The notes: generated by a model from the sequence alone, not told the origin. Shown: positions 12,029-27,832, counted from the first letter of the stretch. The stretch is 35,070 bases of DNA from Flavobacteriales bacterium (GCA_034002325.1 JAVFAQ010000001.1:1-35070), one strand, 5' to 3'. Program-made: numbers and translations.

Positions 12029-13339
12029 ATGACCGAGCAGACCACCCTGAGCCAGGAGCTCATCGCCCGCCGCAAGGCCGCCGTGCCCAACGGTGTGGGC
12101 ATGTTCAACAACGCCACCGCCACGGCGGCCCACGGCGCCATCATCATCGATGCCGACGGGCGCGAGCTGATCGACTTCGCCGGCGGCATCGGCGTGGTGA
12201 ACGCCGGCCACTGCCCGCCGCCCGTGGTGAAGGCCGTGCAGGAGCAGGCGGAGAAGTTCCTGCACGTGAGCTTCAACGTGGCCAGCTACGAACCCTACGT
12301 CGCCCTGTGCGAAAAGCTCAACGCGCTGCTGCCGCATGGCGGCAACACCAAGACCATGCTGGTGAGCACCGGTGCCGAGGCGGTGGAGAACGCCGTCAAG
12401 ATCGCCCGGCAGGCCACCGGCCGCAGCGGGGTGCTCTGCTTCACCGATGCCTTCCACGGCCGCACCCTCATGGCCATGACCCTCACCAGCAAGGTGGGCT
12501 ACAAGCCCGGGTGCGGCCCCTACGCCCCGGAGGTGTACCGCACGCAGTTCCCCAACTTCTTCCGGTACGGCGCCGGCCGCAGCGAGGCCGAGTTCGTGCG
12601 CGATGAACTGCGGCGCCTGGACGAACTGGCCCAGCACACCGTGGACCCCGCCCAGCTGGCCTGCGTGATCATCGAGCTGGTGCAGGGCGAAGGCGGCTTC
12701 ACCGTGGCGCCCAAGGGGTACGTGGAGGGCCTGCGCACGTGGTGCGACCGCCATGGCGTGCTGCTGATCATCGACGAGATCCAGACCGGCTTCGGGCGCA
12801 CCGGGGCCTGGGGCGCGCACGCCCACTACGGCATCACGCCCGACCTGAGCACCTGGGCCAAGAGCCTGGGCAGCGGCCTGCCGATCGCCGCCGTGATGGG
12901 CCGGGCCGCGATCATGGACCAGGCCGCCCCCAGCAGCATCGGCGGCACCTACATCGGAAGCCCCGTGTGCTGTGCGGCCGCCCTGGCCACCCTGCGGTAC
13001 ATGGAAGAGGTGGACATCAACGCGCGGGGGCGCCACGTGGGCCAGGTGGTGCGCGCGCGCTTCGAGCGGATGAAGGCCCGCCACGCCGGCATCGGCGAGG
13101 TGCGCGGCCTGGGCGCCATGATGGCCATGGAGTTCAACGTGGACGGCGACCCCCACCGGCCCGATGCCGACACCTGCACCGCATTGATGGACGCCTGCGC
13201 ACGCCGCGGCCTGGTGGTGATCTCCGCCGGCACCGGCCGCAACGTGATCCGCGTGCTGGGCCCGCTGGTGATCAGTGACGAGCTGCTCAACAAGGGCCTG
13301 GACATCATGGAGGAGGAACTGGACCGGATCGCCGGGTGA
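12029..13339 (+). CDS. Class-III PLP aminotransferase (4-aminobutyrate / omega-amine aminotransferase family)
   Basis: GabT-like sequence throughout (DADGRELIDFAGGIGVVNAGH, STGAEAVENAVKIAR, AFHGRTLMAMTLT, LLIIDEIQTGFGRTG, KSLGSGLP). I place the start at ATG 12029 rather than at the upstream extension of the ORF. Confidence 0.85.
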   Translation: MTEQTTLSQELIARRKAAVPNGVGMFNNATATAAHGAIIIDADGRELIDFAGGIGVVNAGHCPPPVVKAVQEQAEKFLHVSFNVASYEPYVALCEKLNALLPHGGNTKTMLVSTGAEAVENAVKIARQATGRSGVLCFTDAFHGRTLMAMTLTSKVGYKPGCGPYAPEVYRTQFPNFFRYGAGRSEAEFVRDELRRLDELAQHTVDPAQLACVIIELVQGEGGFTVAPKGYVEGLRTWCDRHGVLLIIDEIQTGFGRTGAWGAHAHYGITPDLSTWAKSLGSGLPIAAVMGRAAIMDQAAPSSIGGTYIGSPVCCAAALATLRYMEEVDINARGRHVGQVVRARFERMKARHAGIGEVRGLGAMMAMEFNVDGDPHRPDADTCTALMDACARRGLVVISAGTGRNVIRVLGPLVISDELLNKGLDIMEEELDRIAG

Positions 13340-13414: not shown

Positions 13415-14404
13415 ATGAAGCCTTTCAGCATAGCCGGCATCCAGATGCGCGTGAACGCCTCCTACAGCAACCTGGAGGCGATGAAGCTGAAGCTGGACAT
13501 CCTGATGACCATGTACCCGTGGGTGGACATGGCGATGTTCAGCGAGCTGTGCGTGCATGGCCCGCTCACCCACCATGCCCTGGAACGCATCGAGGACTTC
13601 GAGGAGCCCATGCAGGAGATGGCGCGCAAGCACCGCGTCTGGCTGCTGCCGGGCAGCGTGTTCCACAAGGTGGACGGGCGGATCTACAACACCGCCAGCG
13701 TGATCTCGCCCGCCGGCGAGGTGGTGGCGCGTTACCGCAAGATGTTCCCCTTCTACCCCTACGAGGTGGGGGTGACGCCGGGCAGTGATTTCTGCGTGTT
13801 CGACATACCCGAGGTGGGGCGCTTCGGGGTGAGCATCTGCTACGACATGTGGTTCCCCGAGACCACGCGCACCCTGGCGGTGATGGGGGCGGAGGTGATC
13901 CTGCACCCCACGCTCACGGGCACCATCGACCGGGACATCGAGCTGAGCATCGCCCGGGCCAGCGCGGCCACCAACCAGTGCTACTTCTTCGACATCAACG
14001 GGCTGGACGCCGGGGGCAGCGGCCGCAGCATCATCTGCGGGCCTGAGGGGCGGGTGATCTACCAGGCCGAGAACAACGAGGAGATCATCCCGATCGAGAT
14101 CAACCTGGACAAGGTGCGCCGCAGCCGGGAGCTGGGCGTGCTGCGCCTGGGCCAGCCGCTGAAGAGCTTCCGCGACCACGCCGGCGAGTTCGCCATCTAC
14201 CAGCGCGGCGCCGAGCGGCCCTACCTCAACGGCCTGGGCCCGTTGATCAAGCCGCAACGCGTGAAGGAGCTGGGCGACCTGCACATCCAGGAGGACGGTC
14301 TGCACCGCCAGGACCCCCAGCGCCAGGGGGCCATCGGCAAGGGCGCCATCGCCGGCGCCCTGCGTGCGCGCACCGGCAACGACGACATCGACCAAGTACC
14401 CTAA
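13415..14404 (+). CDS. Carbon-nitrogen hydrolase (nitrilase superfamily amidase)
   Basis: Glu-Lys-Cys catalytic context (MFSELCVHG; RYRKMFPF; FGVSICYDMWFPE), ~260 aa core plus a ~60 aa C-terminal extension. Confidence 0.8.
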   Translation: MKPFSIAGIQMRVNASYSNLEAMKLKLDILMTMYPWVDMAMFSELCVHGPLTHHALERIEDFEEPMQEMARKHRVWLLPGSVFHKVDGRIYNTASVISPAGEVVARYRKMFPFYPYEVGVTPGSDFCVFDIPEVGRFGVSICYDMWFPETTRTLAVMGAEVILHPTLTGTIDRDIELSIARASAATNQCYFFDINGLDAGGSGRSIICGPEGRVIYQAENNEEIIPIEINLDKVRRSRELGVLRLGQPLKSFRDHAGEFAIYQRGAERPYLNGLGPLIKPQRVKELGDLHIQEDGLHRQDPQRQGAIGKGAIAGALRARTGNDDIDQVP

Positions 14405-14416
14405 CCCCCTGATCCC

Positions 14417-14953
14417 ATGGGAGCCACCGCCAAGCCCGCCCGCAAGCCCGCCCGACCGATCGTGGACCACGTAAGCTGGTTCGAGATACCCGTTTACCAC
14501 CTGGAGCGCGCCAAGGCGTTCTACGACCACCTCTACGGCATCGAGATGGAGACCGCCGTGTCCGGCGATTACCGCATGGCCTTCCTGCCGCCCTGCGCCG
14601 GCGTGGGGGGCGCCTTGGTGCAGGGGCCGGGGTGCGTGCCCACGGACGTGGGGGCCCTGTTGTACCTCAACGCCGGGCAGGACCTGGACGGCATGCTGGC
14701 GCGCGTGGTGCCCGGCGGCGGCCGCATCGTCATGGGCCGCACCCTGATTAGCGAGGGTGCCGGCTGGTTCGCGCTGTTCATCGACAGCGAGGGCAACCGC
14801 CTGGCCCTGCACCAGGCCGCGACCGCAGCGGCGCCGGCCGGTCTTGACGAGGTGCCCAAAGCCGCGAAGGCCGCGAAGAAAGCCGTGAAGAAAGTCGCGA
14901 AGAAGGCCGTGGCCAAGCGCGCGGCGGGCCGCAAGCCGGCGAAGCGGAAGTAG
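14417..14953 (+). CDS. VOC/glyoxalase-fold protein fused to a Lys/Ala-rich histone-H1-like tail
   Basis: The N-terminal ~125 aa look like a single VOC module (VSWFEIPVYHLERAKAFY ... GWFALFIDSEGNRLALHQ). The C-terminal 45 aa are PKAAKAAKKAVKKVAKKAVAKRAAGRKPAKRK-type. Confidence 0.7.
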   Translation: MGATAKPARKPARPIVDHVSWFEIPVYHLERAKAFYDHLYGIEMETAVSGDYRMAFLPPCAGVGGALVQGPGCVPTDVGALLYLNAGQDLDGMLARVVPGGGRIVMGRTLISEGAGWFALFIDSEGNRLALHQAATAAAPAGLDEVPKAAKAAKKAVKKVAKKAVAKRAAGRKPAKRK

Positions 14954-14955
14954 GT

Positions 14956-16479
14956 CTACTCGTCGAGGTCCTTCCGCAGCACGCCCACCAGGTGGTCGGG
15001 GAAGTAGTGGTCCGCCAGTTCCACGAACTCGTCGCCCCGGGCGAACATGTCCATGCCCACGTCGGAAAAGCGCTCCTTGCCGCAGGCGGCGAGCAGTTCC
15101 AAGGTGGCGTGGAGCGTGTTGCGGTGGTAGTGGTACACCCGCTCGGTCTTGTCGGTCACCACCAGGCCCCGTTGCAGCCCGCGGTCCTGCGTGGCCACCC
15201 CGGCGGGGCAGTCGTTGGTGTTGCAGCGCAGGGCCTGGATGCAGCCCAGGGCGAACATGAAGCCCCGCGCGCTGTTGCACAGGTCGGCGCCCAAGGCGCG
15301 CATCTTCAGGATGTCGGCGGCGGAAATGACCTTGCCGCTGGCGATCACCCGGATGTGCTCCTTCAGGCCGTAGTGGCGCAATGAGGCGTTCACGAACATC
15401 AAGGCGGGCACGATGGGCATGCCCACGGAATCCGCGAACTCCAGCGGGGCCGCACCGGTGCCTCCCTCGGCGCCGTCCACGGTGATGAAATCGGGCATCA
15501 TGCCGGTGGTGCGCATCTTGGCGCAGATATCGGTGAACTCCTCGGCCTTGCCGATGCAGAGCTTGAAGCCCACGGGCTTGCCGCCGGAGAGCTCGCGCAG
15601 GCGCCCCACGAAGCGCAGCAGGCCGGCGGCATCGCTGAAGGCGCTGTGGCCCGGCGGCGAAAGCACCGTGTGCCCCGGCTCGATGTGGCGGATGCGGGCG
15701 ATCTCCGGGGTGTTCTTGCTGGCCGGCAGCACGCCGCCGTGGCCGGGCTTGGCGCCCTGGCTCAGCTTCACCTCGATCATGCGCACCTGCGGATGGGCCG
15801 CGTTCTTGCGGAACACCTCGGGATCGAAGTCGCCGTTGGCATCGCGGCAGCCGAAATAGCCCGTGCCGATCTGCCACACCAGGTCGCCGCCCGGTGCCAG
15901 GTGGTGGTCGCTGATGGCCCCCTCGCCGGTGTTGTGGTAGAAGCCGCCCTTCTTCGCACCGCCATTGAGGGCGAGGATGGCGTTGCGGCTCAGGGCGCCG
16001 AAGCTCATGGCCGAGATGTTCAGCAACGACGCATCGTAGGGCTGCGTGCATTCGGGCCCGCCGATGCGTACCCGGGGCGGTTCCTTGAGCAGGGGCGCCG
16101 GGAACACCGAGTGCCGCAGCCCCTCGTAATCGCCGTGGTACAGGTCCATCAGCGTGCCGAAGGGCACCGTGTCGTTCACGTTCTTGGCCCGGCGGTACAC
16201 CAGCGAGCGTTGCTGCCGGCTGAAGGGGCGGCCGTCGGTGGTGCGCTCGATGAAGTACTGCTGCATCTCCGGGCTGATGAACTCGAAGAAGTAGCGCGCG
16301 TAGCCCAGCACCGGGAAGTTGCGCATGATGGTGTGCCGCACCTGCAGCACGTTGAGGATGCCGATGATCACCAGCGGCACCAGCACCACGTACCACCACA
16401 GCACGATGGGGTGGAAGTAGCCGATCACCCCCACCAGGAGCAGCAGGAAGAAGCTCAGTCCGTAGAAGATGCGCCGCAT
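14956..16479 (-). CDS. FMN-binding glutamate synthase family protein (GltB domain-2-like), membrane anchored
   Basis: N-terminal TM helices, then a GltS FMN-domain-like core (VKLSQGAKPGHGGVLP, GFKLCIGK, DFITVDGAEGGTGAAP, IASGKV). The start at ATG 16479 is supported by a perfect TAAGTTTG box 17 nt upstream, so the 20-codon upstream extension is unlikely. Confidence 0.85.
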   Translation of the reverse strand: MRRIFYGLSFFLLLLVGVIGYFHPIVLWWYVVLVPLVIIGILNVLQVRHTIMRNFPVLGYARYFFEFISPEMQQYFIERTTDGRPFSRQQRSLVYRRAKNVNDTVPFGTLMDLYHGDYEGLRHSVFPAPLLKEPPRVRIGGPECTQPYDASLLNISAMSFGALSRNAILALNGGAKKGGFYHNTGEGAISDHHLAPGGDLVWQIGTGYFGCRDANGDFDPEVFRKNAAHPQVRMIEVKLSQGAKPGHGGVLPASKNTPEIARIRHIEPGHTVLSPPGHSAFSDAAGLLRFVGRLRELSGGKPVGFKLCIGKAEEFTDICAKMRTTGMMPDFITVDGAEGGTGAAPLEFADSVGMPIVPALMFVNASLRHYGLKEHIRVIASGKVISAADILKMRALGADLCNSARGFMFALGCIQALRCNTNDCPAGVATQDRGLQRGLVVTDKTERVYHYHRNTLHATLELLAACGKERFSDVGMDMFARGDEFVELADHYFPDHLVGVLRKDLDE

Positions 16480-19481: not shown

Positions 19482-20621
19482 CTACAACGTCCCCCGGCTC
19501 GCCTGCTCGCGTTCGATCGCCTCGAACAGCGCCTTGAAGTTGCCCTTCCCGAAGCTCTTCGCGCCCTTGCGCTGGATGATCTCGATGAAGAGCGTGGGGC
19601 GGTCCTGCAGCGGCTTGGTGAAGAGCTGCAAGAGGTAGCCCTCGTCGTCGCGGTCCACCAGGATGCCCAGTTCGGCGAGCGGTGCCAGGTCTTCCTCGAT
19701 GGGCCCCACGCGGTCCAGCAGGCCCTCGTAGTAGGTCGAAGGCACTTTGAGGAACTCCACGCCGCGCGCCATGAGCTCGCGCACCGTCTTCACGATGTCG
19801 TCCGTGGCGATCGCGATGTGCTGCACGCCGGGGCCGTTGTAGAAGTCCAGGTACTCCTCCACCTGGCTCTTCTTCTTGCCCTCGGCCGGCTCGTTGATCG
19901 GGAACTTGATGCGGCCGTTGCCGTTGCTCATCACCTTGCTCATCAAGGCGCTGTACTCGGTGCTGATGTCCTTGTCGTCGAAGCCCAGCACGTTGGCGAA
20001 GCCCATCACCTCCTCGTAGAACTTCACCCAGGGGTCCATTTCGTTCCAGCCCACGTTGGCCACCATGTGGTCCACGTACTTCAGGCCGGTGGTGGTGGGG
20101 TTGTAGGCGCTCTTCCAAGGCTTGTAGCCCGGCAGGAAGGTGCCCTTGTAGTTCTTGCGCTCCACGAACACATGCACCGTGTCGCCGTACAGCTTGATGC
20201 CGCTCTTGACCACTTCGCCGTCGGCGTCCTTCTCCACGCGGGGCTCGAAGTAGGGCACGGCGCCACGCTTGGTGGTCTCTTCGAAGGCCTTGCGGGCGTC
20301 GTCCACCCACAGGGCGATCACCTTCACGCCGTCGCCGTGCAGGCGCAGGTGGTCGTTGATCTCGTGGTCCTTCGTCAGCGGGGTGGTGAGCACCAGGCGG
20401 ATCTTGTCCTGCACCACCACGTAGCTGGTGCGGTCCTTCACGCCCGTCTCCAGGCCCGCGTAGGCGAGGCTCTGGAAGCCGAAGGCCGTCTTGTAGAAAT
20501 GGGCGGCCTGCTTGGCGTTGCCCACGTAGAGTTCGATGTGGTCGGTGCCCAAGAGGGGAAGGAAGTCCGCCGCTTCGGGCACCACTTTCTTCAGGTCGGG
20601 GGTTGCGCTTTCGATGGCCAT
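19482..20621 (-). CDS. hppD: 4-hydroxyphenylpyruvate dioxygenase
   Basis: 379 aa, two VOC-fold halves, HPPD-like throughout (HIELYVGNAKQAAHFY, GVQHIAIATDDI, LFEAIEREQ). Confidence 0.93.
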   Translation of the reverse strand: MAIESATPDLKKVVPEAADFLPLLGTDHIELYVGNAKQAAHFYKTAFGFQSLAYAGLETGVKDRTSYVVVQDKIRLVLTTPLTKDHEINDHLRLHGDGVKVIALWVDDARKAFEETTKRGAVPYFEPRVEKDADGEVVKSGIKLYGDTVHVFVERKNYKGTFLPGYKPWKSAYNPTTTGLKYVDHMVANVGWNEMDPWVKFYEEVMGFANVLGFDDKDISTEYSALMSKVMSNGNGRIKFPINEPAEGKKKSQVEEYLDFYNGPGVQHIAIATDDIVKTVRELMARGVEFLKVPSTYYEGLLDRVGPIEEDLAPLAELGILVDRDDEGYLLQLFTKPLQDRPTLFIEIIQRKGAKSFGKGNFKALFEAIEREQASRGTL

Positions 20622-20886
20622 GGTCGTTGGGGGGATCAGATGATTCGTCGATCAGATGATCAGGGACTCGACCGGACTTCCGGTCCGGGTCGGAGCTGCA
20701 AAGATCGGTCATTTGTCCCGGGGGCGGATGACAGCGGTCAGCCCTGCCCGGAACGGCTCAGGGGCTTGCCACGCATGCCCATCGCGCAAGGCCCCGGCTT
20801 TCGGCCTGCAAACCCGCCGCCCGGTGGACGCGGGTGTAGCCATCCGGTCCACCCGTGTCCATCCGGGCACAAAGCGGCAACCCGGA

Positions 20887-21296
20887 TCAGCCTTTCACCA
20901 GCGGAACACCGTATGCCTCGAAATGCGGATCGGCCGTGAGCAAGTGCATGCCCTCATGCTTCGCTTGGGCGATCAGCATGTGCTTCATCCCGCCACAGCG
21001 GGGCGGTCAAAGGGATCGCGGTGGTGGAGGGGGAGCGAAGCAACCGCCAGGAAGTGTTCTTCTTTGATGGGAGTTGTCAGGAAGCCGGCGTCACCGATCA
21101 ACTTGAATGTCGTGGCCAGGCCCTGGTCGAGCCTCAGCTTCCCGATGGATGACTTGATCGCGATTTCCCAGAACGATACATGACTGACGAAATGCGCTTC
21201 AGGTGATCGTTCGATCTGGTCGCGGACCGAGGGCGCAAGCCTCCTGTCGAGGGATTGGAACCAGAGCAGCACATGGGTGTCGAGCAACACGCTCAT
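20887..21296 (-). pseudogene. vapC: PIN-domain (VapC-type) toxin gene, frameshifted near the 3' end
   Basis: The 103-aa ORF (21296->20985) ends ...HHRDPFDRPAVAG*. The canonical continuation MLIAQAKHEGMHLLTADPHFEAYGVPLVKG* is encoded in another frame at 20979->20887. Removing the 23 nt at 20980-21002 restores FDR-MLIAQA in one frame. Confidence 0.7.
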
Positions 21297-21502
21297 TCCA
21301 TGTATTCCTTGAAGTCGTCCAGCGGGGCATCAAAATCGTCCGCGATCCAGATCTTGCCCTTCATCAGGCCGGCGATGCGCTTCTTCGGTTCTTGCTCAGG
21401 TATAGGTTGGCCAGCGAGGAGGGCCTCGATGTATGCGAGTACCTTCTTGCGCAAGCCCTCCGGCAAGGAATTGAACTTCACGAAAAGGTCGGCACTGGAC
21501 AT
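21293..21502 (-). CDS. DUF2281-type antitoxin partner of the PIN toxin
   Basis: 69 aa. The C-terminal KGKIWIADDFDAPLDDFKEYME motif is typical of DUF2281 antitoxins. ATGA stop/start overlap with the PIN gene. Confidence 0.7.
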   Translation of the reverse strand: MSSADLFVKFNSLPEGLRKKVLAYIEALLAGQPIPEQEPKKRIAGLMKGKIWIADDFDAPLDDFKEYME

Positions 21503-21536
21503 AGTGCGAAGTTAGGTCATCCGGGTGCGGTCCGCT

Positions 21537-21833
21537 TCAGCCGCGCGCATAGATCAGTTGCTTGTCGCGGTCCACATAAGGCTTCACGTGCGGGCTCAGG
21601 CCCTTGGTGGTCACCAGGTCCACGGAGCGGGAGAGCAGGGCTTCCAGGTCCAGGCCCATTTGGATGAAGTGCAGGCCGATGGGCTGGCTGTGGTCCAGTT
21701 CCACCAGGATGTCCACGTTGCTACGTTCATCCGCCATGCCGCGCGCGAACGAACCGAACAGATAGGCCTGCTTCACGGGTTGGCCCGCGAAGTAGGTCCT
21801 CAGTTGGGCCAGTGCCTGCTCGTTCAACTGCAT
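21537..21833 (-). CDS. Minimal nucleotidyltransferase (MntA-like), no HepT/DUF86 partner present
   Basis: 98 aa. The LFGSFARG...NVDILVEL pattern is the GSxxRG...DxD pol-beta NTase signature of MNT antitoxins. Confidence 0.75.
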   Translation of the reverse strand: MQLNEQALAQLRTYFAGQPVKQAYLFGSFARGMADERSNVDILVELDHSQPIGLHFIQMGLDLEALLSRSVDLVTTKGLSPHVKPYVDRDKQLIYARG

Positions 21834-21896
21834 GCGTCTTCGTCCCGATCTGTCGGGAGAGCGAAGGTAGCGGAGAGGTGTCTGGCGGGCTATCCG

Positions 21897-22223
21897 AAGT
21901 AGCCCGCACCCTGAGGCCTTGCGAAGGGGAGGACTACTGCGGAAAGCCCGACCCGAGGCTTTGCGAGGGCACCCGCCTTCGGCAGGCAGGCGCCCACACC
22001 TCGGCCGCGCTCGGCGTGGTACCTGCCCGTCATGCCATTTTCCGATCCTCTGATCCTCTAATTATCTGATCGCCCTATTCCACCCACGAGTTCCAGTACT
22101 TCCCATCATCGATCTTCAGCGCCTCCTCGGTCACCATCAGCGGCTTGAAGGTATCCACCATCACGGCGCGCTCGTCGGTCTTCGTTTTGCCGATGCTGCG
22201 TTCCATGGCGCCGGGCTGCGGGC
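21897..22223. repeat. Direct repeat copy 1 (REP-rich flank + orphan hmgA 3' end)
   Basis: Matches 24220-24548 in the same orientation. I count 7 substitutions and 2 one-base indels. A further 12-nt match (atgtgcagggtg, 22227-22238 vs 24566-24577) follows a short gap. Confidence 0.9.
22076..22223 (-). pseudogene. hmgA: Orphan 3' fragment of homogentisate 1,2-dioxygenase (last ~49 codons)
   Basis: Encodes PGAMERSIGKTKTDERAVMVDTFKPLMVTEEALKIDDGKYWNSWVE*, nearly identical to the C-terminus of the intact gene at 24400-25557. No start codon and no upstream hmgA sequence. Confidence 0.85.
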
Positions 22224-22258
22224 AGCATGTGCAGGGTGTGCGAGTGAGGCAGATCCAC

Positions 22259-22266
22259 TAATTTTG
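22259..22266 (+). promoter_or_regulatory. -7 promoter box TAATTTTG for the wHTH-NTase pair, followed by tandem CGTGAAT x2 (22272-22285)
   Basis: Perfect TAnnTTTG 20 nt upstream of ATG 22287. The 7-mer tandem repeat lies between the box and the ATG. Confidence 0.5.
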
Positions 22267-22286
22267 CGATTCGTGAATCGTGAATC

Positions 22287-22799
22287 ATGGATACGCACAA
22301 GGGCATGCGCCCACAGGACGTAGCGGTGTTGCTGAAGATCGTGGCCTTGGGCAACGACGACTGGCGGGGCATCGACCTGGCGCATGCGCTGCGCCTGAGC
22401 CCGGCCGAGGTGAGCAACTCGCTGAAGCGTTCCGCCATGGCCGGCCTGGTGGACGGCACCAAGCGCCGCGTGTCGAGAGCCGCGCTGCTGGAGTTCCTCA
22501 AGCACGGCCTGCCGTACGTGTTCCCCGTGCGGCCCGGTGGGTTGGTGCGTGGCGTGCCGACCGCGCACGCGGCCGCGCCCCTTCGCACGAAATTCCTGAC
22601 CGCCGATGCCTACGTGTGGCCCTACGCCAAGGGCGACCAGCAGGGGCAGGCCATTGTGCCACTGTACCCCGGTGCCGTTGCTGCCGCACTCGACGACCCC
22701 AAGCTGCACGAACTGCTGGCGTTGGCCGATGCCCTGCGCACCGGTCGCGCCCGCGAACGCGCCGAGGCCGGGAAAGAACTGGCCAAGCGCCTGAAGTGA
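22287..22799 (+). CDS. Winged-helix DNA-binding protein, putative AbiEi-like antitoxin/regulator
   Basis: 170 aa. N-terminal wHTH-like segment (QDVAVLLKIVALG ... IDLAHALRLSPAEVSNSLKRSAMAGLV). The stop overlaps the next start (TGATG). Confidence 0.6.
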   Translation: MDTHKGMRPQDVAVLLKIVALGNDDWRGIDLAHALRLSPAEVSNSLKRSAMAGLVDGTKRRVSRAALLEFLKHGLPYVFPVRPGGLVRGVPTAHAAAPLRTKFLTADAYVWPYAKGDQQGQAIVPLYPGAVAAALDDPKLHELLALADALRTGRARERAEAGKELAKRLK

Positions 22800-23485
22800 T
22801 GCGCGACGCGGTGAATATCCAGGCCGTGCAGATCGTGGCCGATGGCTTGCGCGACCTGCGCGATCAGGTGGTCTTCGTGGGCGGCGCCGTGATCAGCCTC
22901 TATGCGGACGACCCGGGTGCCGATACGCCGCGCCCCACATCGGACATCGATCTCGTGATCGAAGTGGCAGGCTATTCGGCCTACGCAAAATTGGAGGAGC
23001 GCCTCGCGCAACTCGGCTTCCGCCACACACCGGAAGAGCCGGTCAACTGCCGCTACCGCTTCCACGGGGTCACGGTGGACATCATGCCTACCGATGTGCC
23101 CGCGCTGATGCCCACCAACCGCTGGTACCTGCCGGGCATGCGGCATGTTGTGCGCACAACCCTGCCCGACGGCAGCGCGCTCGCGGTGCTCACCGTGCCC
23201 TACTTCCTCGGCACCAAGTTCGAGGCACACAAGGACCGCGGCCGCGACCTGCGCACCAGCAAGGACTTCGAGGACATCGTCTTCATCCTTGATGCACGCT
23301 TGCGATTGGAAGAGGAAGTGGCCACCGCTCCGGAAGAGATACGCGACTACCTCCAGCGTGCGGCCCAAGCCTTGTTGAAGAATCCCGCAACGCGCGAAGC
23401 CATCGAAGGGCACCTTTCGCCGCACATCGCCACGGAGCGGGCGGCGGTGCTATTGGAACGATTGCGGGCGATGGCGGGGGAGTGA
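22799..23485 (+). CDS. Nucleotidyltransferase, AbiEii/AbiGii-like putative toxin
   Basis: 228 aa. FVGGAVISLY-x13-SDIDLVIE (G-G/S ... DxD pol-beta NTase core). The downstream FLGTKFEAHKDRG...SKDFEDIVFIL resembles the conserved Lys/Asp motif of AbiEii proteins. Translationally coupled to the wHTH gene. Confidence 0.6.
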   Translation: MRDAVNIQAVQIVADGLRDLRDQVVFVGGAVISLYADDPGADTPRPTSDIDLVIEVAGYSAYAKLEERLAQLGFRHTPEEPVNCRYRFHGVTVDIMPTDVPALMPTNRWYLPGMRHVVRTTLPDGSALAVLTVPYFLGTKFEAHKDRGRDLRTSKDFEDIVFILDARLRLEEEVATAPEEIRDYLQRAAQALLKNPATREAIEGHLSPHIATERAAVLLERLRAMAGE

Positions 23486-23610
23486 TGCCTCTTCGGGCCG
23501 CAGGCTTGCCTGCCGGAGGCAGGGGCGTCGTCCTCCCTGTGCAAGGCCGGAAGCACGACAGGTCTTGCGGAGGGGGAAGTGCAGGTCAATAGCTACGCCG
23601 GTGCGGGCGA

Positions 23611-24183
23611 TCATGGCAGCCGCTTACGCACCATTTCGTAGACCTCGTGGTCGTCATCTGCTATACCGGCTCGCGATGGGACCAGTAAGAGTCCTTCTCC
23701 ATCCGTCCAGTACAGTTGGAGTTCCTTCCCCATGAAAGTGTCTCCTTGGGCAAAGAGTGTGTCAATCGAGTTGTTGCGGGCAAGCATCAGAGTTGTACCA
23801 ACGCTGTCGTTGCTCAGAAAGAACTCGCCCTTGTCCGTTCGGTCATGCACGGTATCCGCGTACTTCTCGGTCCAAATGAACACCTTGGAGCTTTTCAGCT
23901 CAAGCTGGATGTGTCGGTCCAAGGATTCCGCACCGTACCAGCAGGTATCAGGTCTCCGATTCATCCAGAGCAGAGAGTCGACCCAGATCCCGGTGATGTC
24001 CTCGACCGTGGTTTCGCGTCCATCACCCTTAAGGTCGCATTGTACCTTGTTCCGCATGACGTAACGAAGCGACAATTGGGCATTGGTTGAATCTCTTGAT
24101 CGCTCGCCCTTGAGCGATGGTGATTCGCCGCACCCCGCAATAACAGAGGCAATCGCAAAAGCCCAGAGCAATGGCTTATTCAT
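23611..24183 (-). CDS. Lipoprotein of unknown function (compositionally atypical)
   Basis: Lipobox signal MNKPLLWAFAIASVIAGC at the internal ATG 24183. The 47 upstream codons of the listed ORF run into the repeat. G+C is visibly lower than in neighbouring genes. No family recognised. Confidence 0.65.
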   Translation of the reverse strand: MNKPLLWAFAIASVIAGCGESPSLKGERSRDSTNAQLSLRYVMRNKVQCDLKGDGRETTVEDITGIWVDSLLWMNRRPDTCWYGAESLDRHIQLELKSSKVFIWTEKYADTVHDRTDKGEFFLSNDSVGTTLMLARNNSIDTLFAQGDTFMGKELQLYWTDGEGLLLVPSRAGIADDDHEVYEMVRKRLP

Positions 24184-24219
24184 GTCACCAATGCATGGCT
24201 CCGCGTGAGGGATAGGAGC

Positions 24220-24548
24220 AAGTAGCCCGCACCCTGAGACCTTGCGAAGGGGAGGACTACTGCGGATAGCCCGACTCCGAGGCTTTGCGAGGGGCACCCG
24301 CCTTCGGCAGGCAGGCGCCCACACCTCGGCCGCGCTCGGCGTGGTGCCTGCCCGTCATGCCATTTTCCGACCCTCTGATCCTCTAATTATCTGATCGCCC
24401 TATTCCACCCACGAGTTCCAGTACTTCCCGTCGTCGATCTTCAGCGCCTCCTCGGTCACCATCAGCGGCTTGAAGGTATCCACCATCACGGCGAGCTCGT
24501 CGGTCTTCGTTTTGCCGATGCTGCGTTCCATGGCGCCGGGCTGCGGGC
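24220..24548. repeat. Direct repeat copy 2 (REP-rich flank + 3' end of the intact hmgA)
   Basis: See copy 1 at 21897-22223. Confidence 0.9.
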
Positions 24549-25557
24549 CGTGCGGGATGCCGGCGATGTGCAGGGTGATGTCGCCCTGGTCGATGTCGTT
24601 GCGGCTCATGAAATCGCCGTCCACGTAGTAGAGCACTTCGTCGCTGTCGATGTTGCTGTGGTTGTACGGTGCGGGGATGGCCTGCGGGTGGTAGTCGTAG
24701 AGGCGCGGGCAGAAGCTGCACACCACGAAGGCATCGGTCTCGAAGGTCTGGTGTACGGGCGGCGGCTGGTGTACGCGACCGGTGATCGGCTCGAAGTCGC
24801 GGATGTTGAAGGCGTACGGGTAGTTGTAGCCGTCCCAGCCCACCACGTCGAAGGGGTGCGTGGCGTAGATCAGCTCGTGCAGCACGCCCTGCTTCTTCAC
24901 CAGCATGCGGAAATCGCCTTTTTCATCGTGCGTCTCCAGGTCCTTCGGGCGGCGGATGTCGCGCTCGCAGAAGGGGCTGTGCTCCAGCAGTTGGCCGAAC
25001 CAGTTGCGGTAGCGCTTGGGCGTGTACACGGGGCGGTGGCTCTCCACGATGAAGTGGCGGTTCTCGGCACCGTCGAACTCCATGGTGTAGATCATGCCGC
25101 GTGGCACCAGCAGGTAGTCGCCGTAGCCGAACTCCAGGGTGCCCAGCAGGGTGCGCAGGCGGCCGGTGCCCTGGTGGATGAAGATCATCTCATCGCAGTC
25201 GGCGTTCTTGTAGAAGTAGTCCACGCTTTTGGCGGTGGGCGCGGAGAGGATGATCTGCACGTCGCTGTTGACCAGGATCGGCTTGCGGCTTTCGAGGTGA
25301 TCGGCCACCGGCGCCACTTTGAAGCCGTGCAGGCGCATGGCGCGCATGTTCTTCTCGATCGCGATCTTGGGGGTGAGGTCGGTGCTGCCCACGATCTTCT
25401 TCACCTGCGTGGGGCGATGCACGTGGTACAGCAGGGAGCTCATGCCGTCGAAGCCGACGGTGCCGAAGAGCTGCTCGTAGTAGTGCCTGCCTTCCGGGCT
25501 TTGGTGGATGGTGTGCCGCTTGTGCGGGATGTTGCCGAGGGTGTGGTAGATGGGCAT
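24400..25557 (-). CDS. hmgA: Homogentisate 1,2-dioxygenase
   Basis: 385 aa, HGD-like throughout (MPIYHTLGNIPHKRHT, LLYHVHRPTQV, GDYLLVPRGMIY, HIAGIPHGPQPG). Confidence 0.93.
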   Translation of the reverse strand: MPIYHTLGNIPHKRHTIHQSPEGRHYYEQLFGTVGFDGMSSLLYHVHRPTQVKKIVGSTDLTPKIAIEKNMRAMRLHGFKVAPVADHLESRKPILVNSDVQIILSAPTAKSVDYFYKNADCDEMIFIHQGTGRLRTLLGTLEFGYGDYLLVPRGMIYTMEFDGAENRHFIVESHRPVYTPKRYRNWFGQLLEHSPFCERDIRRPKDLETHDEKGDFRMLVKKQGVLHELIYATHPFDVVGWDGYNYPYAFNIRDFEPITGRVHQPPPVHQTFETDAFVVCSFCPRLYDYHPQAIPAPYNHSNIDSDEVLYYVDGDFMSRNDIDQGDITLHIAGIPHGPQPGAMERSIGKTKTDELAVMVDTFKPLMVTEEALKIDDGKYWNSWVE

Positions 25558-25574
25558 TTTGGCGGTGCGGGTTG

Positions 25575-25594
25575 GGGCGCGAAATTTCGCGCCC
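25575..25594. promoter_or_regulatory. Perfect 20-bp palindrome GGGCGCGAAATTTCGCGCCC between the trhO stop and the hmgA start
   Basis: Self-complementary over all 20 nt. It abuts the trhO stop codon (25595-25597) and ends 17 nt upstream of the hmgA ATG. It is either the trhO terminator stem or an hmgA operator. Confidence 0.5.
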
Positions 25595-26764
25595 TTACTT
25601 TCTGTTGAGGGTGATATCCATCAGCTCGGGATGCAGGGTGCCGTTCCGCGCGAGCAGTTCCTCCTCCTCGCGGATCCGCTTCCGCAGACCTTCCGGATCG
25701 TTGATGGCCTTGGTCTTCGTGCTGCGGGTGCTGCGGCCTTTCCGCCACTCGCGTTGCGCTTCGATGGGCAGTTGATGGATCTCGCGGCAGCTCGGCGAGC
25801 AGCAGTGGGCGTACTTGGTCGCGCAGGCTTCGCACTGCACCAGCAGCATGTTGCAGGTGGCCTCGTGGCAGTTGGTGATGCGGTCGCTGGCGGTGCCGCA
25901 CTGCATGCAGGTGCTCACCACATCGTCGGTGATGCGTTCGGCCAGGCGCTCGTCGAACACGAAGTTCTGGCCCTTGTACTTGCTGGGCAGTCCTTCGGCC
26001 TTCAACTGCCGTGCATAATCGATGATGCCCCCGTGCAGCTGCGCCACGTTGGTGAAGCCGTGATGCTTCAGGTAAGCGCTGGCCTTTTCGCAGCGGATGC
26101 CGCCGGTGCAGTAGAGGAGTATTTCCGGTGATCTTGTGTGTCGACCCTTGGGGTCGACGGTACGGGTGCCGCGATCGAGGCCTTGCGGGTCAGGTGATCG
26201 CAGCATCCCCACCACCTCATCTATGGCCCCTCGGAAGGTATCCGCTTTCGGCAGGTAGGCGCCCTCGAAATGCCCGATCACGCTCTCGTAGTTGTTGCGC
26301 ATGTCGATCACCAGCGCGCCTTCCTCCATCTTCCGGTTGAAGGTCTTCGCATCCAGGTGCGCGCCCACGTCGGTCACGTCGAAGGCATCGTCGGCCAGGC
26401 CGTCGGCCACGATCTTCTTCCGCACCTTGATGATGAGCTTCAGGAAGCTCCTGCCATCGTCCTCCACGGCGATCTTCCACGGCACATCACGGAAGGCGGT
26501 CCGGCCATCGAGGTCGCGTCGGAAGGCATCGAGCCGTTCGGTGGGCACGCTCACCTGGGCGTTGATGCCCTCCTGCGCGAGGTAGACGCGCCCCAGCACG
26601 CCCAAGGCTTGCCACGCCTGGTACAGTGCGTTGCGAAGGTCCCCGACCTCGCGCAGCCGCACGTAGCGGTAGAAGCTCAACGTGGTGCGCGGCACGCCTT
26701 CGCGCTCCTGTTCGGCGCGGAGCTGCTCCGGGCTTTTCAGGTTGCGCAGGCGGTGCGGGTCCAT
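25595..26764 (-). CDS. trhO: Rhodanese-domain tRNA uridine(34) hydroxylase TrhO (YceA/UPF0176 family) with Cys-rich C-terminal region
   Basis: LSFYRYV N-terminal domain, rhodanese active-site loop YCTGGIRCEKA, C-terminal Cys cluster (CMQCG...CHEATC...CEAC...CCSPSC). Start at ATG 26764. The 689-aa listed ORF is an upstream read-through artefact. Confidence 0.85.
   Translation of the reverse strand: MDPHRLRNLKSPEQLRAEQEREGVPRTTLSFYRYVRLREVGDLRNALYQAWQALGVLGRVYLAQEGINAQVSVPTERLDAFRRDLDGRTAFRDVPWKIAVEDDGRSFLKLIIKVRKKIVADGLADDAFDVTDVGAHLDAKTFNRKMEEGALVIDMRNNYESVIGHFEGAYLPKADTFRGAIDEVVGMLRSPDPQGLDRGTRTVDPKGRHTRSPEILLYCTGGIRCEKASAYLKHHGFTNVAQLHGGIIDYARQLKAEGLPSKYKGQNFVFDERLAERITDDVVSTCMQCGTASDRITNCHEATCNMLLVQCEACATKYAHCCSPSCREIHQLPIEAQREWRKGRSTRSTKTKAINDPEGLRKRIREEEELLARNGTLHPELMDITLNRK
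26140..26169. repeat. Palindromic element GTCGACCCTTGGGGTCGACGGTACGGGTGC inside the trhO coding sequence, copy 2 of 2
   Basis: 27/30 identical to 8967-8996. Translated in frame as part of ...DRGTRTVDPKGRH... just upstream of the CTGGIRC loop. Confidence 0.8.
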
Positions 26765-26854
26765 GCGACGAAGGTACGGTGCACGGAACGCCGCCTCGGC
26801 CCGATGATCCCTGCCTGCCGGCCGGTCGGGCGTGCCGGTGCGCCGCGCTGCGCA

Positions 26855-26862
26855 TAGATTTG
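26855..26862 (+). promoter_or_regulatory. -7 promoter box TAGATTTG for tdh
   Basis: Perfect TAnnTTTG 16 nt upstream of ATG 26879. Confidence 0.5.
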
Positions 26863-26878
26863 CCGGCCCGGTCCACCC

Positions 26879-27832
26879 ATGACCCACGTCCCGAAGAAGA
26901 TCCTCGTCATCGGCTCCAGCGGCCAGATCGGCACCGAGCTCGTGGAGGGCCTGCGTGCCCGCTTCGGCGGGGCGCACGTGGTGGCGGCGGACATCCGTGA
27001 GCCGCAGGCCCCCGCCGCGATCGACGGGCCCTTCACCGTGCTCGACGCGCTGGACCGCCCCGGCATCGAGCGGGTGGTGGCCGAGCACGGCATCACCGAC
27101 GTGTACCTGCTGGCGGCCCTGCTGAGCGCCACGGCGGAAAAGGACCCCGCCTTCGCTTGGAAGCTCAACATGGACAGCCTGTTCATCGTGCTGGAGCTGG
27201 CGCGTGAAGGGAAGGTGCGGCAGGTGTACTGGCCCAGCAGCATCGCCGCGTTCGGCCCCACCACGCCGAAGGACGCCACCCCGCAGCACACCATCACCGA
27301 GCCCACCACCGTGTACGGCATCAGCAAATTGGCCGGCGAAGGCTGGTGCAATTACTACCACGCACGCTACGGCGTGGACGTGCGCAGCATCCGCTATCCG
27401 GGCCTCATCGGCTGGAAGAGCGCACCGGGCGGCGGCACCACGGACTATGCCGTACACATCTTCCACGAGGCGCTGAGGCAGGGCCGCTACAACTGCTTCC
27501 TGGGCCGGGGCAGCACCCTGCCCATGATGTACATGCCCGACGCCATCCGCGCCACCATCGAGCTGATGGAGGCCCCCGCCGACCGGCTCACCGTGCGCAC
27601 CAGCTACAACCTGGCCGGCTTCAGCTTCAGCCCGGACGAGATCGCCGCCGAGGTGCGCCGCCATGTGCCCGGCTTCGACATGGCCTACACGCCCGATGAG
27701 CGCCAGGCCTACGCCGATTCATGGCCGAACAGCATCGACGACAGTGCCGCCCGCACGGATTGGGGCTGGCGGCCACGCTATGACCTCCCGGCCATGGTGG
27801 ACGACATGTTCGCCCACCTGCGCCACGGCTGA
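26879..27832 (+). CDS. tdh: NAD-dependent L-threonine 3-dehydrogenase (SDR/UDP-galactose-4-epimerase-like type)
   Basis: GSSGQIGTEL Rossmann motif, YGISK catalytic YxxxK, 317 aa. Overall resemblance to short-chain-type TDH. Confidence 0.8.
   Translation: MTHVPKKILVIGSSGQIGTELVEGLRARFGGAHVVAADIREPQAPAAIDGPFTVLDALDRPGIERVVAEHGITDVYLLAALLSATAEKDPAFAWKLNMDSLFIVLELAREGKVRQVYWPSSIAAFGPTTPKDATPQHTITEPTTVYGISKLAGEGWCNYYHARYGVDVRSIRYPGLIGWKSAPGGGTTDYAVHIFHEALRQGRYNCFLGRGSTLPMMYMPDAIRATIELMEAPADRLTVRTSYNLAGFSFSPDEIAAEVRRHVPGFDMAYTPDERQAYADSWPNSIDDSAARTDWGWRPRYDLPAMVDDMFAHLRHG

Follow-up and report, generated by a model that had tools for sequence, protein, structure and literature searches.

The homogentisate 1,2-dioxygenase gene hmgA and the 4-hydroxyphenylpyruvate dioxygenase gene hppD of an uncultured Flavobacteriales bacterium (GCA_034002325.1, JAVFAQ010000001.1:1-35070) enclose a spacer in which a direct repeat of about 327 bp, made of the 3' end of hmgA and the non-coding DNA beyond it, brackets three genes: a winged helix-turn-helix (wHTH) regulator, a nucleotidyltransferase (NTase) and a lipoprotein. 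The stretch analysed, referred to here as the window, is 35,070 nucleotides long and is the whole contig of a Flavobacteriales metagenome-assembled genome. With moderate confidence, we attribute the repeat to one event of unequal or illegitimate recombination, whose scar it would be and through which two versions of the hmgA-hppD spacer came to lie in tandem; we do not read it as the footprint of a new mobile cassette. The initial annotation had favored an element that inserted into the 3' end of hmgA while carrying a replacement end and had offered unequal recombination as its alternative; it is the alternative that the comparative data support, with one novel joint (J1) and genes that are resident at the locus.

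Under the reading we prefer, version A would consist of hppD, a frameshifted PIN gene, VapB, a minimal nucleotidyltransferase (MNT), hairpins and a 3' fragment of hmgA, and version B would run from J1 through the wHTH gene, the AbiEii-like NTase gene, the lipoprotein gene and hairpins to the intact hmgA. The 327 bp would be the part common to both versions, namely the hmgA 3' end and its downstream hairpins. Version-B DNA from a closely related strain would have recombined into a version-A chromosome by a homologous crossover inside hmgA, and J1, at a microhomology patch, would be the illegitimate joint formed by its other end. This route would be homology-facilitated illegitimate recombination (HFIR), as for 'C-terminal displacement', and the mirror event, anchored in hppD, would lead to the same product. 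The features of the spacer and its flanking genes are listed below from left to right; labels beginning with L denote comparison loci and contigs.

19482..20621, minus strand: hppD, 4-hydroxyphenylpyruvate dioxygenase (Pfam Glyoxalase and HPPD_N)
20622..20760, no strand: putative hppD-proximal half of the ancestral hppD-wHTH intergenic region (position-anchored alignment to L087 and L096)
20896..21296, minus strand: vapC-like PIN gene, frameshifted, possibly a pseudogene (Pfam PIN)
21293..21502, minus strand: VapB-family antitoxin, DUF2281 (Pfam DUF2281; NCBIfam TA_VapB, 81 bits, cutoff 60)
21537..21833, minus strand: MntA-like MNT without a HEPN partner (Pfam Polbeta/NTP_transf_2; PADLOC PDC-S09)
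21897..22069, no strand: repeat copy 1, non-coding part, two hairpins 3' of the hmgA stop
22070..22223, minus strand: orphan hmgA 3' fragment, last ~50 codons and stop, coding part of copy 1
22224..22238, no strand: J1, the only novel joint, fusing the hmgA interior to the wHTH upstream region, with patchy microhomology
22239..22286, no strand: putative AbiE-proximal half of the ancestral hppD-wHTH intergenic region (BLAST to L096 reaches 22229, to L094 22258 and to L087 22263)
22287..22799, plus strand: wHTH protein, 170 aa, presumed antitoxin or regulator (PADLOC PDC-M21A, E = 4e-42)
22799..23485, plus strand: AbiEii-family NTase, putative toxin (Pfam PF08843, 40.4 bits, cutoff 22.5; PADLOC PDC-M21B, E = 7e-56)
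23611..24183, minus strand: lipoprotein, 190 aa, no family match, signal peptide and lipobox (VIAGC), convergent with the NTase gene
24184..24219, no strand: upstream region of the lipoprotein gene and end of the hairpin element (collinear across 24219/24220 with L098 7757-7870)
24220..24399, no strand: repeat copy 2, non-coding part, first ~90 nt past the stop conserved with L003 and L098
24400..25557, minus strand: intact hmgA, homogentisate 1,2-dioxygenase, 385 aa (Pfam HgmA_N), its last 149 nt (24400-24548) being the coding part of copy 2

The two copies of the repeat lie in the same orientation at 21897-22223 (327 nt) and 24220-24548 (329 nt), about 2.3 kb apart with a start-to-start spacing of 2325 bp. 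A repeat search, MAFFT and a global alignment found 320 of 329 positions identical (97.3%), leaving 7 substitutions and 2 one-nucleotide indels, or 9 differing sites and 2.7% divergence, which reproduces exactly the count first reported. A 28-mer of the repeat had no match in 100 shuffles of the window, and a chance origin is therefore excluded. No other repeat of 60 nt or more was found within 20000-27000, so that the 327 bp are all that the two units share. Each copy comprises 149-154 nt of hmgA 3' coding sequence, including the stop region, and 173-180 nt of downstream non-coding DNA. The copies differ at the following sites.

21916 G in copy 1, 24239 A in copy 2
21944 A in copy 1, 24267 T in copy 2
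22021 A in copy 1, 24346 G in copy 2
22046 T in copy 1, 24371 C in copy 2
22105 A in copy 1, 24430 G in copy 2
22108 A in copy 1, 24433 G in copy 2
22169 C in copy 1, 24494 A in copy 2
24276, extra T in copy 2 (1 nt)
24291, extra G in copy 2 (1 nt)

Copy 2 belongs to the intact gene and copy 1 to an orphan, as the initial annotation had it: the 385-aa hmgA, equal in length in 80 relatives and matched over its full length at 70-83% aa identity in 80 genomes, ends in copy 2, and copy 1 retains only about 50 codons, 98% identical to 24400-24548 and 90% identical to the hmgA 3' end of L087. It was also correct that two of the three coding differences are synonymous (GAT GAT in copy 1, GAC GAC in copy 2); the third, CGC in copy 1 for CTC in copy 2, exchanges Leu for Arg in copy 1. 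Leu stands at this codon in copy 2 and in all five outgroups that cover it, and the Leu-to-Arg change is therefore derived in the orphan. Where outgroups allow polarization, derived states are found on both copies. The orphan fragment would be free to decay while hmgA stays intact, which fits its derived Leu-to-Arg change. The exact hmgA protein (24400-25557) is not on record in the gene-position index, in which neighboring proteins of the 35-kb contig are; the source annotation probably gives hmgA another start or lacks the gene.

J1 is the place at which the two versions would meet. It reads GGGC, AGC, ATGTGCAGGGTG, TGCGAG, of which GGGC is the last hmgA-homologous stretch, the homology to copy 2 stopping at 22223. 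The 12-nt ATGTGCAGGGTG at 22227-22238 is identical to 24566-24577 in hmgA (12/12), past a gap of 3 nt against 17 nt, and this is the resumption of homology beyond a short gap that had been described before. The same segment, AGCATG..GGTG..TGCGA, aligns also with the sequence upstream of the wHTH gene in L087 (AGCATGACGGTGTTTGCGA, where the form is AGCATG-ACGGTG) and with CAGCAGGGCGTGCCGG upstream of the wHTH gene in L096. Against L096, BLAST homology begins at the NTase stop and gives out at 22229, 58 nt before the wHTH start; in L096 the sequence carries on from there to hppD without interruption. In position-anchored tests, the match of 22224-22262 to the wHTH-proximal part of the relatives' intergenic region was reached in 3 of 2000 shuffles for L096 and 18 of 2000 for L087, and that of 20622-20760 to the hppD-proximal part in 2 of 2000 shuffles for L087 and 34 of 2000 for L096; together these give moderate evidence for homology to the relatives' intergenic region, both to the right of J1 and upstream of the window's own hppD. 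Neither remnants of the pair upstream of hppD nor similarity between 22224-22290 and 20622-20900 were found. We read J1 as a mosaic joint at a microhomology patch, which would explain the 12-nt resumption of homology. On these alignments J1 appears to link codon ~336 of hmgA with a site ~50-60 nt ahead of the wHTH gene, within the old hppD-wHTH intergenic region. A pure version A would show copy-1-type single-nucleotide polymorphisms (SNPs) followed by GGGCTGCGGGCCGTGCGGG and the rest of hmgA, and a pure version B would show hppD upstream sequence ending ...GGTCAGC followed by the wHTH upstream region.

A joint of this kind is also exactly what an intragenomic tandem duplication would leave, the distal end of one unit (hmgA codon ~336) being fused to the proximal start of the next (upstream of the wHTH gene), and spontaneous tandem duplications at microhomologies are common. 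The ancestor would have carried hppD, the AbiE-like pair, PIN-VapB-MNT, the lipoprotein gene, hairpins and hmgA; the spacer and the hmgA 3' end would have been duplicated via J1, after which PIN-VapB-MNT disappeared from the right unit, and the pair and the lipoprotein gene from the left. Both the presence of the AbiE-like pair together with PIN-VapB-MNT in one spacer in L096 and the decay already under way in the PIN gene agree with this course. Two collinear units of the same content were not encountered, however: the units are complementary, share 327 bp but no gene, and are 2.7% diverged within the shared part. At least three further deletions would be needed to leave no shared gene, and one of these must have cut the hairpin element in unit A only, since the element is complete in version B (as in L098, L003, L087 and L096) and truncated in version A. 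A ~4-kb perfect tandem repeat, moreover, would be very unstable, too much so for several independent deletions, and would have had to outlast these as well as the accumulation of 9 differing sites with derived changes in both copies. Strain variation among the SRA contigs is at most 0.24%. For these reasons we infer that two alleles were joined rather than one duplicated, and we regard duplication followed by differential loss as possible but doubtful.

Comparison with relatives bears on whether the three genes arrived together. In about 60 Bacteroidota loci hmgA and hppD are immediate neighbors, hppD being the downstream gene, with gaps mostly of 33-700 bp, and in many relatives the spacer is empty (33-100 bp). 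Among 80 loci retrieved via hmgA, none held a homolog of the cassette or a second hmgA 3' end, and L087, L096 and L098 each have a single hmgA 3' end. In L087 (GCA_041391865.1, a 233-kb contig) the order is hppD, wHTH-AbiEii, MNT, RES, a 340-aa gene, hmgA, rhodanese and epimerase, with outer synteny equal to that of the window. The whole spacer of L096/L097 reads hppD, wHTH-AbiEii, PIN, two DUF2281 genes, MNT, a PIF1-like helicase, hairpins and hmgA. In both L087 and L096, the closest relatives, the pair adjoins hppD and is divergently transcribed from it. Identity of these two loci to the window is 84-85% nt and 88-90% aa for the pair, 86-88% nt for hppD and 83% nt for hmgA. Because the divergence of the pair is similar to that of the flanking core genes, these values fit co-inheritance of the pair with the hmgA-hppD locus.

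For the lipoprotein only 11 homologs were found, and the best-placed of them, with 76% aa identity, lies 3' of hmgA, on the same strand, in L098-L101. Downstream of hmgA these loci (JGI 3300015615 / 3300014202) have a 149-aa gene, then the lipoprotein homolog, a 181-aa gene and a beta-lactamase-family gene; no hppD lies within 8 kb. L094, in which an AbiE-like pair stands beside an 87-aa gene and a beta-lactamase-family gene, is possibly a further variant of this neighborhood. Distant homologs of the pair (62-73% and 33-49%) always have the wHTH gene upstream of the NTase gene and were never near hppD, hmgA or the lipoprotein gene. A metagenome scan based on AbiEii likewise returned 34 loci, none with hppD, hmgA or the lipoprotein gene nearby, which helps to show that the pair moves independently over longer time scales; the scan gave no parental haplotype. 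An exact 26-mer of the repeat had no match in JGI metagenome contigs and so yielded no empty sites at strain level. The pair without the lipoprotein gene occurs at more than 30 other loci, and the lipoprotein gene also occurs without the pair. As pair and lipoprotein gene were never found together elsewhere, the three genes of the supposed cassette are not a unit.

Site-specific integration of a mobile three-gene element at the 3' end of hmgA, with a replacement 3' end and an integrase that was lost or acts in trans, is an explanation that these comparisons do not support. The topology is that of 3'-end genomic islands, in that direct repeats restore an intact 385-aa hmgA and leave a displaced fragment, and base composition is heterogeneous: the lipoprotein gene has a guanine-plus-cytosine (GC) content of 53-57%, compared to about 63-65% around it. 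The three genes between the copies are thus as first described, a wHTH and NTase pair and a low-GC lipoprotein gene, and so is the absence of an integrase, recombinase or transposase, none of which was found by Pfam among all genes from hppD to hmgA and 20 other open reading frames (ORFs) of the 35-kb window. That absence counts against integration, as does a repeat that runs 180 nt past the stop, which is neither needed nor typical for an att site. The supposed element also lacks conserved ends. On the right, the hairpin element and the lipoprotein start are collinear and conserved in L098, 3' of hmgA, so that the 24219/24220 boundary is ancestral contiguity and no joint or element end; the end of the hairpin element, CTATCCCTCACGCGG, is also found 3' of hmgA in L003, L087 and L096. 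On the left, the boundary lies within what relatives have as one continuous hppD-wHTH intergenic region. The block has no recombinase in the window, lacks ends specific to an element and does not recur as a unit, and the pair is already resident beside hppD in the closest relatives at core-like divergence; integration is extremely improbable. The layout that had suggested it, an intact gene next to a displaced orphan 3' end, stands; its attribution to a mobile cassette does not.

Two other routes would require no recombinase. In the first, a Campbell-type event, a 2.3-kb circle holding the repeat, the wHTH-NTase pair and the lipoprotein gene would have been excised illegitimately from a version-B chromosome and inserted by a RecA single crossover in the 327-bp homology of version A. 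This would yield exactly repeat, insert and repeat with 2325 bp from start to start and a content collinear with version B. It takes two steps, compared to one for HFIR, its product is indistinguishable from that of HFIR, no circular junction or second site was found, and the block was not seen as a unit elsewhere; we consider it unlikely. In the second, the three genes would be a hitch-hiking cassette, a circle or linear fragment that carries the 3' end of a host gene, integrates by homology and is protected from loop-out by its toxin-antitoxin (TA) genes. If true, this would be a self-stabilizing, homology-targeted mobile TA module, which we judge very unlikely. Whatever its origin, RecA-dependent recombination between the 327-bp repeats could delete the pair and the lipoprotein gene, a loop-out that the initial annotation had suggested and that is still a reasonable idea, and the pair, if it is an active TA system, may select against such loss.

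The duplication might instead have been made by the assembler from two co-occurring strains with different spacers, stitched into one contig. The window does come from a metagenome-assembled genome, several strains do co-occur (L084 differs at 4 of 1698 positions), and every short-read contig breaks at the repeat. The organism is present in the SRA runs SRR25572339, SRR34943919, SRR9016297, SRR34423826 and SRR35387942. Logan contigs that are independent of the submitted assembly and come from other SRA runs nevertheless match the window at 99.8-100% identity, and one of them, L081, covers 22194-24231 and physically contains J1, which neither pure strain would contain. Because of this independent contig we take J1 to be a real sequence. 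L083 and L084 run from the MNT side and end at 21996, and L086 runs from the lipoprotein side and ends at 24321. Four contig ends (22194, 21996 twice, and 24321) are each situated 30 nt inside a run of sequence without differences between the copies, as would be expected of a k=31 graph with both copies present, k being assumed; the repeat does not account for the remaining end of L081 (24231). The copy-specific SNPs are at most 72 nt apart and can be phased by ordinary reads. An artefact, the outcome that would have dissolved the initial annotation's observation altogether, is thus unlikely, and stitching of two strains in particular is highly improbable.

Several points weigh against a stacking of two spacer versions. 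No strain was found that has either version on its own at near-identity, and the two-allele premise is itself something that we infer. A homologous crossover in hmgA leaves no trace, and the linkage of J1 to the copy-1 SNPs comes from the submitted assembly only, as L081 starts past the last SNP. Unanchored local alignments of the short intergenic pieces were not significant (p = 0.07-0.45). The L096 allele, with both the AbiE-like pair and PIN-VapB-MNT, keeps the route of duplication plus loss open. HFIR usually gives insertion-deletions, net duplications being less documented, and this uncultured Flavobacteriales lineage is not known to be naturally competent or to have another route of DNA uptake.

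Displaced 3' ends are known from C-terminal displacement in rhs, cdiA and type VI secretion system (T6SS) effector loci (Jackson 2009, Poole 2011, Koskiniemi 2014, as cited in PMC5361080), and for the rhs and T6SS loci Kirchberger et al. 2017 (PMC5361080) describe HFIR as the mechanism proposed to leave 3' regions orphaned. The hmgA locus resembles these in having an intact gene followed by an orphan 3' fragment with a near-identical block and the old downstream neighbors kept, in the combination of one homologous anchor and one illegitimate joint that is proposed for both, and in direct repeats that can recombine again. It differs in that the gene is a housekeeping catabolic enzyme whose 3' ends are ~98% identical and bring no new C-terminal function; the C-termini of the displaced and intact ends are one amino acid apart (Leu/Arg) and so are not polymorphic. 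The payload here is a TA or defense pair and a lipoprotein gene, not a toxin tip and its immunity gene, and there is a single displacement and no array. With HFIR as known from transformation and conjugation (de Vries & Wackernagel 2002, Prudhomme et al. 2002, Meier & Wackernagel 2003, as cited in PMC5361080; also PMC3240628), the locus would share one-sided homology, a GC-rich microhomology patch at the other joint and the capture of non-homologous neighbors without a recombinase; unlike those cases, it is a natural locus, not an experimental system, and its result is a net duplication instead of the usual insertion-deletion. The event resembles C-terminal displacement, HFIR and tandem duplication, and it does not behave as an integrative element.

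On this account the locus would be a clear and well-resolved natural example of small TA or defense islets between core genes being reshuffled without a dedicated recombinase. The displaced-3'-end pattern of rhs, contact-dependent inhibition (CDI) and T6SS loci would thereby also be found at a gene of ordinary catabolism, in an uncultured Flavobacteriales lineage. No new kind of mobile element or mechanism is revealed; the event is of an ordinary kind. For annotation it carries a caution, in that direct repeats bracketing accessory genes are insufficient to call an integrative element.

The contents of the hmgA-hppD spacer vary among relatives: L003 carries an IS110 transposase with a tetratricopeptide repeat (TPR) protein, L032 a PKD/Por-tail protein, L087 a RES-domain pair and L096 a PIF1-like helicase. 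Since filled spacers differ in content, the spacer is a small hypervariable hot spot for TA and candidate defense genes. Defense and TA hot spots between conserved core genes are known, and here too a conserved pair of genes, hmgA and hppD, brackets a spacer that changes among close relatives (TA pairs, RES, helicase, IS110), although on a small scale (0-4 kb). We know of no earlier description of a hot spot at hmgA-hppD or in this Flavobacteriales lineage, and we offer it as a modest pointer to local TA and candidate defense genes. In L003 the IS110-family transposase (DEDD_Tnp_IS110 and Transposase_20; 12229-13250) is split into two ORFs beside the TPR protein. In L087 hmgA itself (13885-15038) is split by a frameshift near residue 152, either as a pseudogene or through an assembly error. 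Elsewhere on the 35-kb contig the genes are of housekeeping type, among them those for succinate dehydrogenase, HemN, DnaG and glutamate dehydrogenase.

In the left part of the spacer, the PIN gene is frameshifted near codon 100, with residues 1-102 and 99-126 of the intact 128-aa L096 homolog in different frames; it is likely a decaying VapC toxin gene beside an intact VapB antitoxin gene. The NCBIfam MntA match of the MNT was below its cutoff. Homologs of the MNT with ~90% aa identity occur in the same spacer in L096 (3002-3295) and L087 (11018-11329), the latter copy being split by a frameshift.

The wHTH and NTase genes form a bicistron with the regulator first, the wHTH stop overlapping the NTase start (TGATG, 22797-22801). 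The same order is found in 32 of 34 related metagenome loci, the other two being cut at the contig end. The NTase has 1123 homologs, mostly from Bacteroidota metagenomes, and matches the PADLOC AbiEii model weakly (E = 5e-4) and PDC-M21B strongly; both components of PDC-M21 (M21A and M21B) are on adjacent genes. The wHTH protein had no match to a Pfam AbiEi family at E <= 0.01 and gave weak, sub-threshold matches to Lrs14/ArsR HTH families only. The pair can thus be described as AbiE-like through its NTase and as matching PDC-M21, but, because its wHTH partner matches no AbiEi family, we have not filed it as canonical AbiE; its features suggest an AbiE-like subfamily of its own, marked by a short regulator. 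No match to the lipoprotein was found in Pfam, NCBIfam or PADLOC families.

Upstream of the wHTH gene lies a putative Bacteroidota -7 box, TAATTTTG, at 22259-22266, together with a GATTC..GAATC inverted repeat that is conserved in relatives. The Bacteroidota -7 consensus is TAnnTTTG, and consensus and conservation point to a promoter and operator at this position. Because no part of the wHTH promoter region is left of J1, the pair should still be expressed. AbiE is a type IV TA and abortive-infection system (PMC3985639) in which AbiEi autoregulates through an inverted repeat in the promoter region (PMC7319586). The pair shares with AbiE (Dy et al. 2014, PMC3985639) the bicistronic arrangement of a wHTH gene and a DUF1814/AbiEii-family NTase gene with stop and start overlapping, as well as an inverted repeat in the promoter region as for AbiEi autoregulation (PMC7319586). 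It differs in its 170-aa wHTH partner, which has no Pfam AbiEi match, and in its NTase, with a weak match to the AbiEii model and a strong one to PDC-M21B.

The non-coding part of each repeat copy contains two hairpins, the first at 21969-21991 in copy 1 and 24294-24316 in copy 2. The initial annotation had called this DNA rich in repetitive extragenic palindromic (REP) sequences. The hairpins have no further copies elsewhere in the 35-kb window, and the REP hypothesis was dropped in favor of a hairpin element conserved 3' of hmgA in relatives. The fold of the non-coding part as RNA was not better than that of shuffles (z = -0.27), and Rfam gave sub-threshold chance matches only on 20500-25700. 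The interval that separates the NTase gene from the lipoprotein gene contains a hairpin (23504-23526) related to hairpin 1 in inverted orientation (19/23, a score reached in 15 of 1000 shuffles). Similar hairpin elements stand at module boundaries in relatives: in L098 the 149-aa gene has a copy on each side, and in L096 AbiEii and PIN are separated by GACCC..GGGGTCGCAG pairs.

The left flank of copy 1 (21886-21896) does not continue the hairpin element of the relatives. We also considered whether this flank might be the ancestral one, as it pairs with an internal 11-mer, and rejected this; it is the flank of copy 2 that continues the element of the relatives. The 11 nt at 21886-21896 (CGGGCTATCCG) are the exact reverse complement of an internal 11-mer in its copy 2 form (24263-24273), and the copy 1 version (21940-21950) has one mismatch. 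This inverted 11-mer could be the signature of a template switch or a quasi-palindrome at an older junction between the MNT module and the hairpin element.

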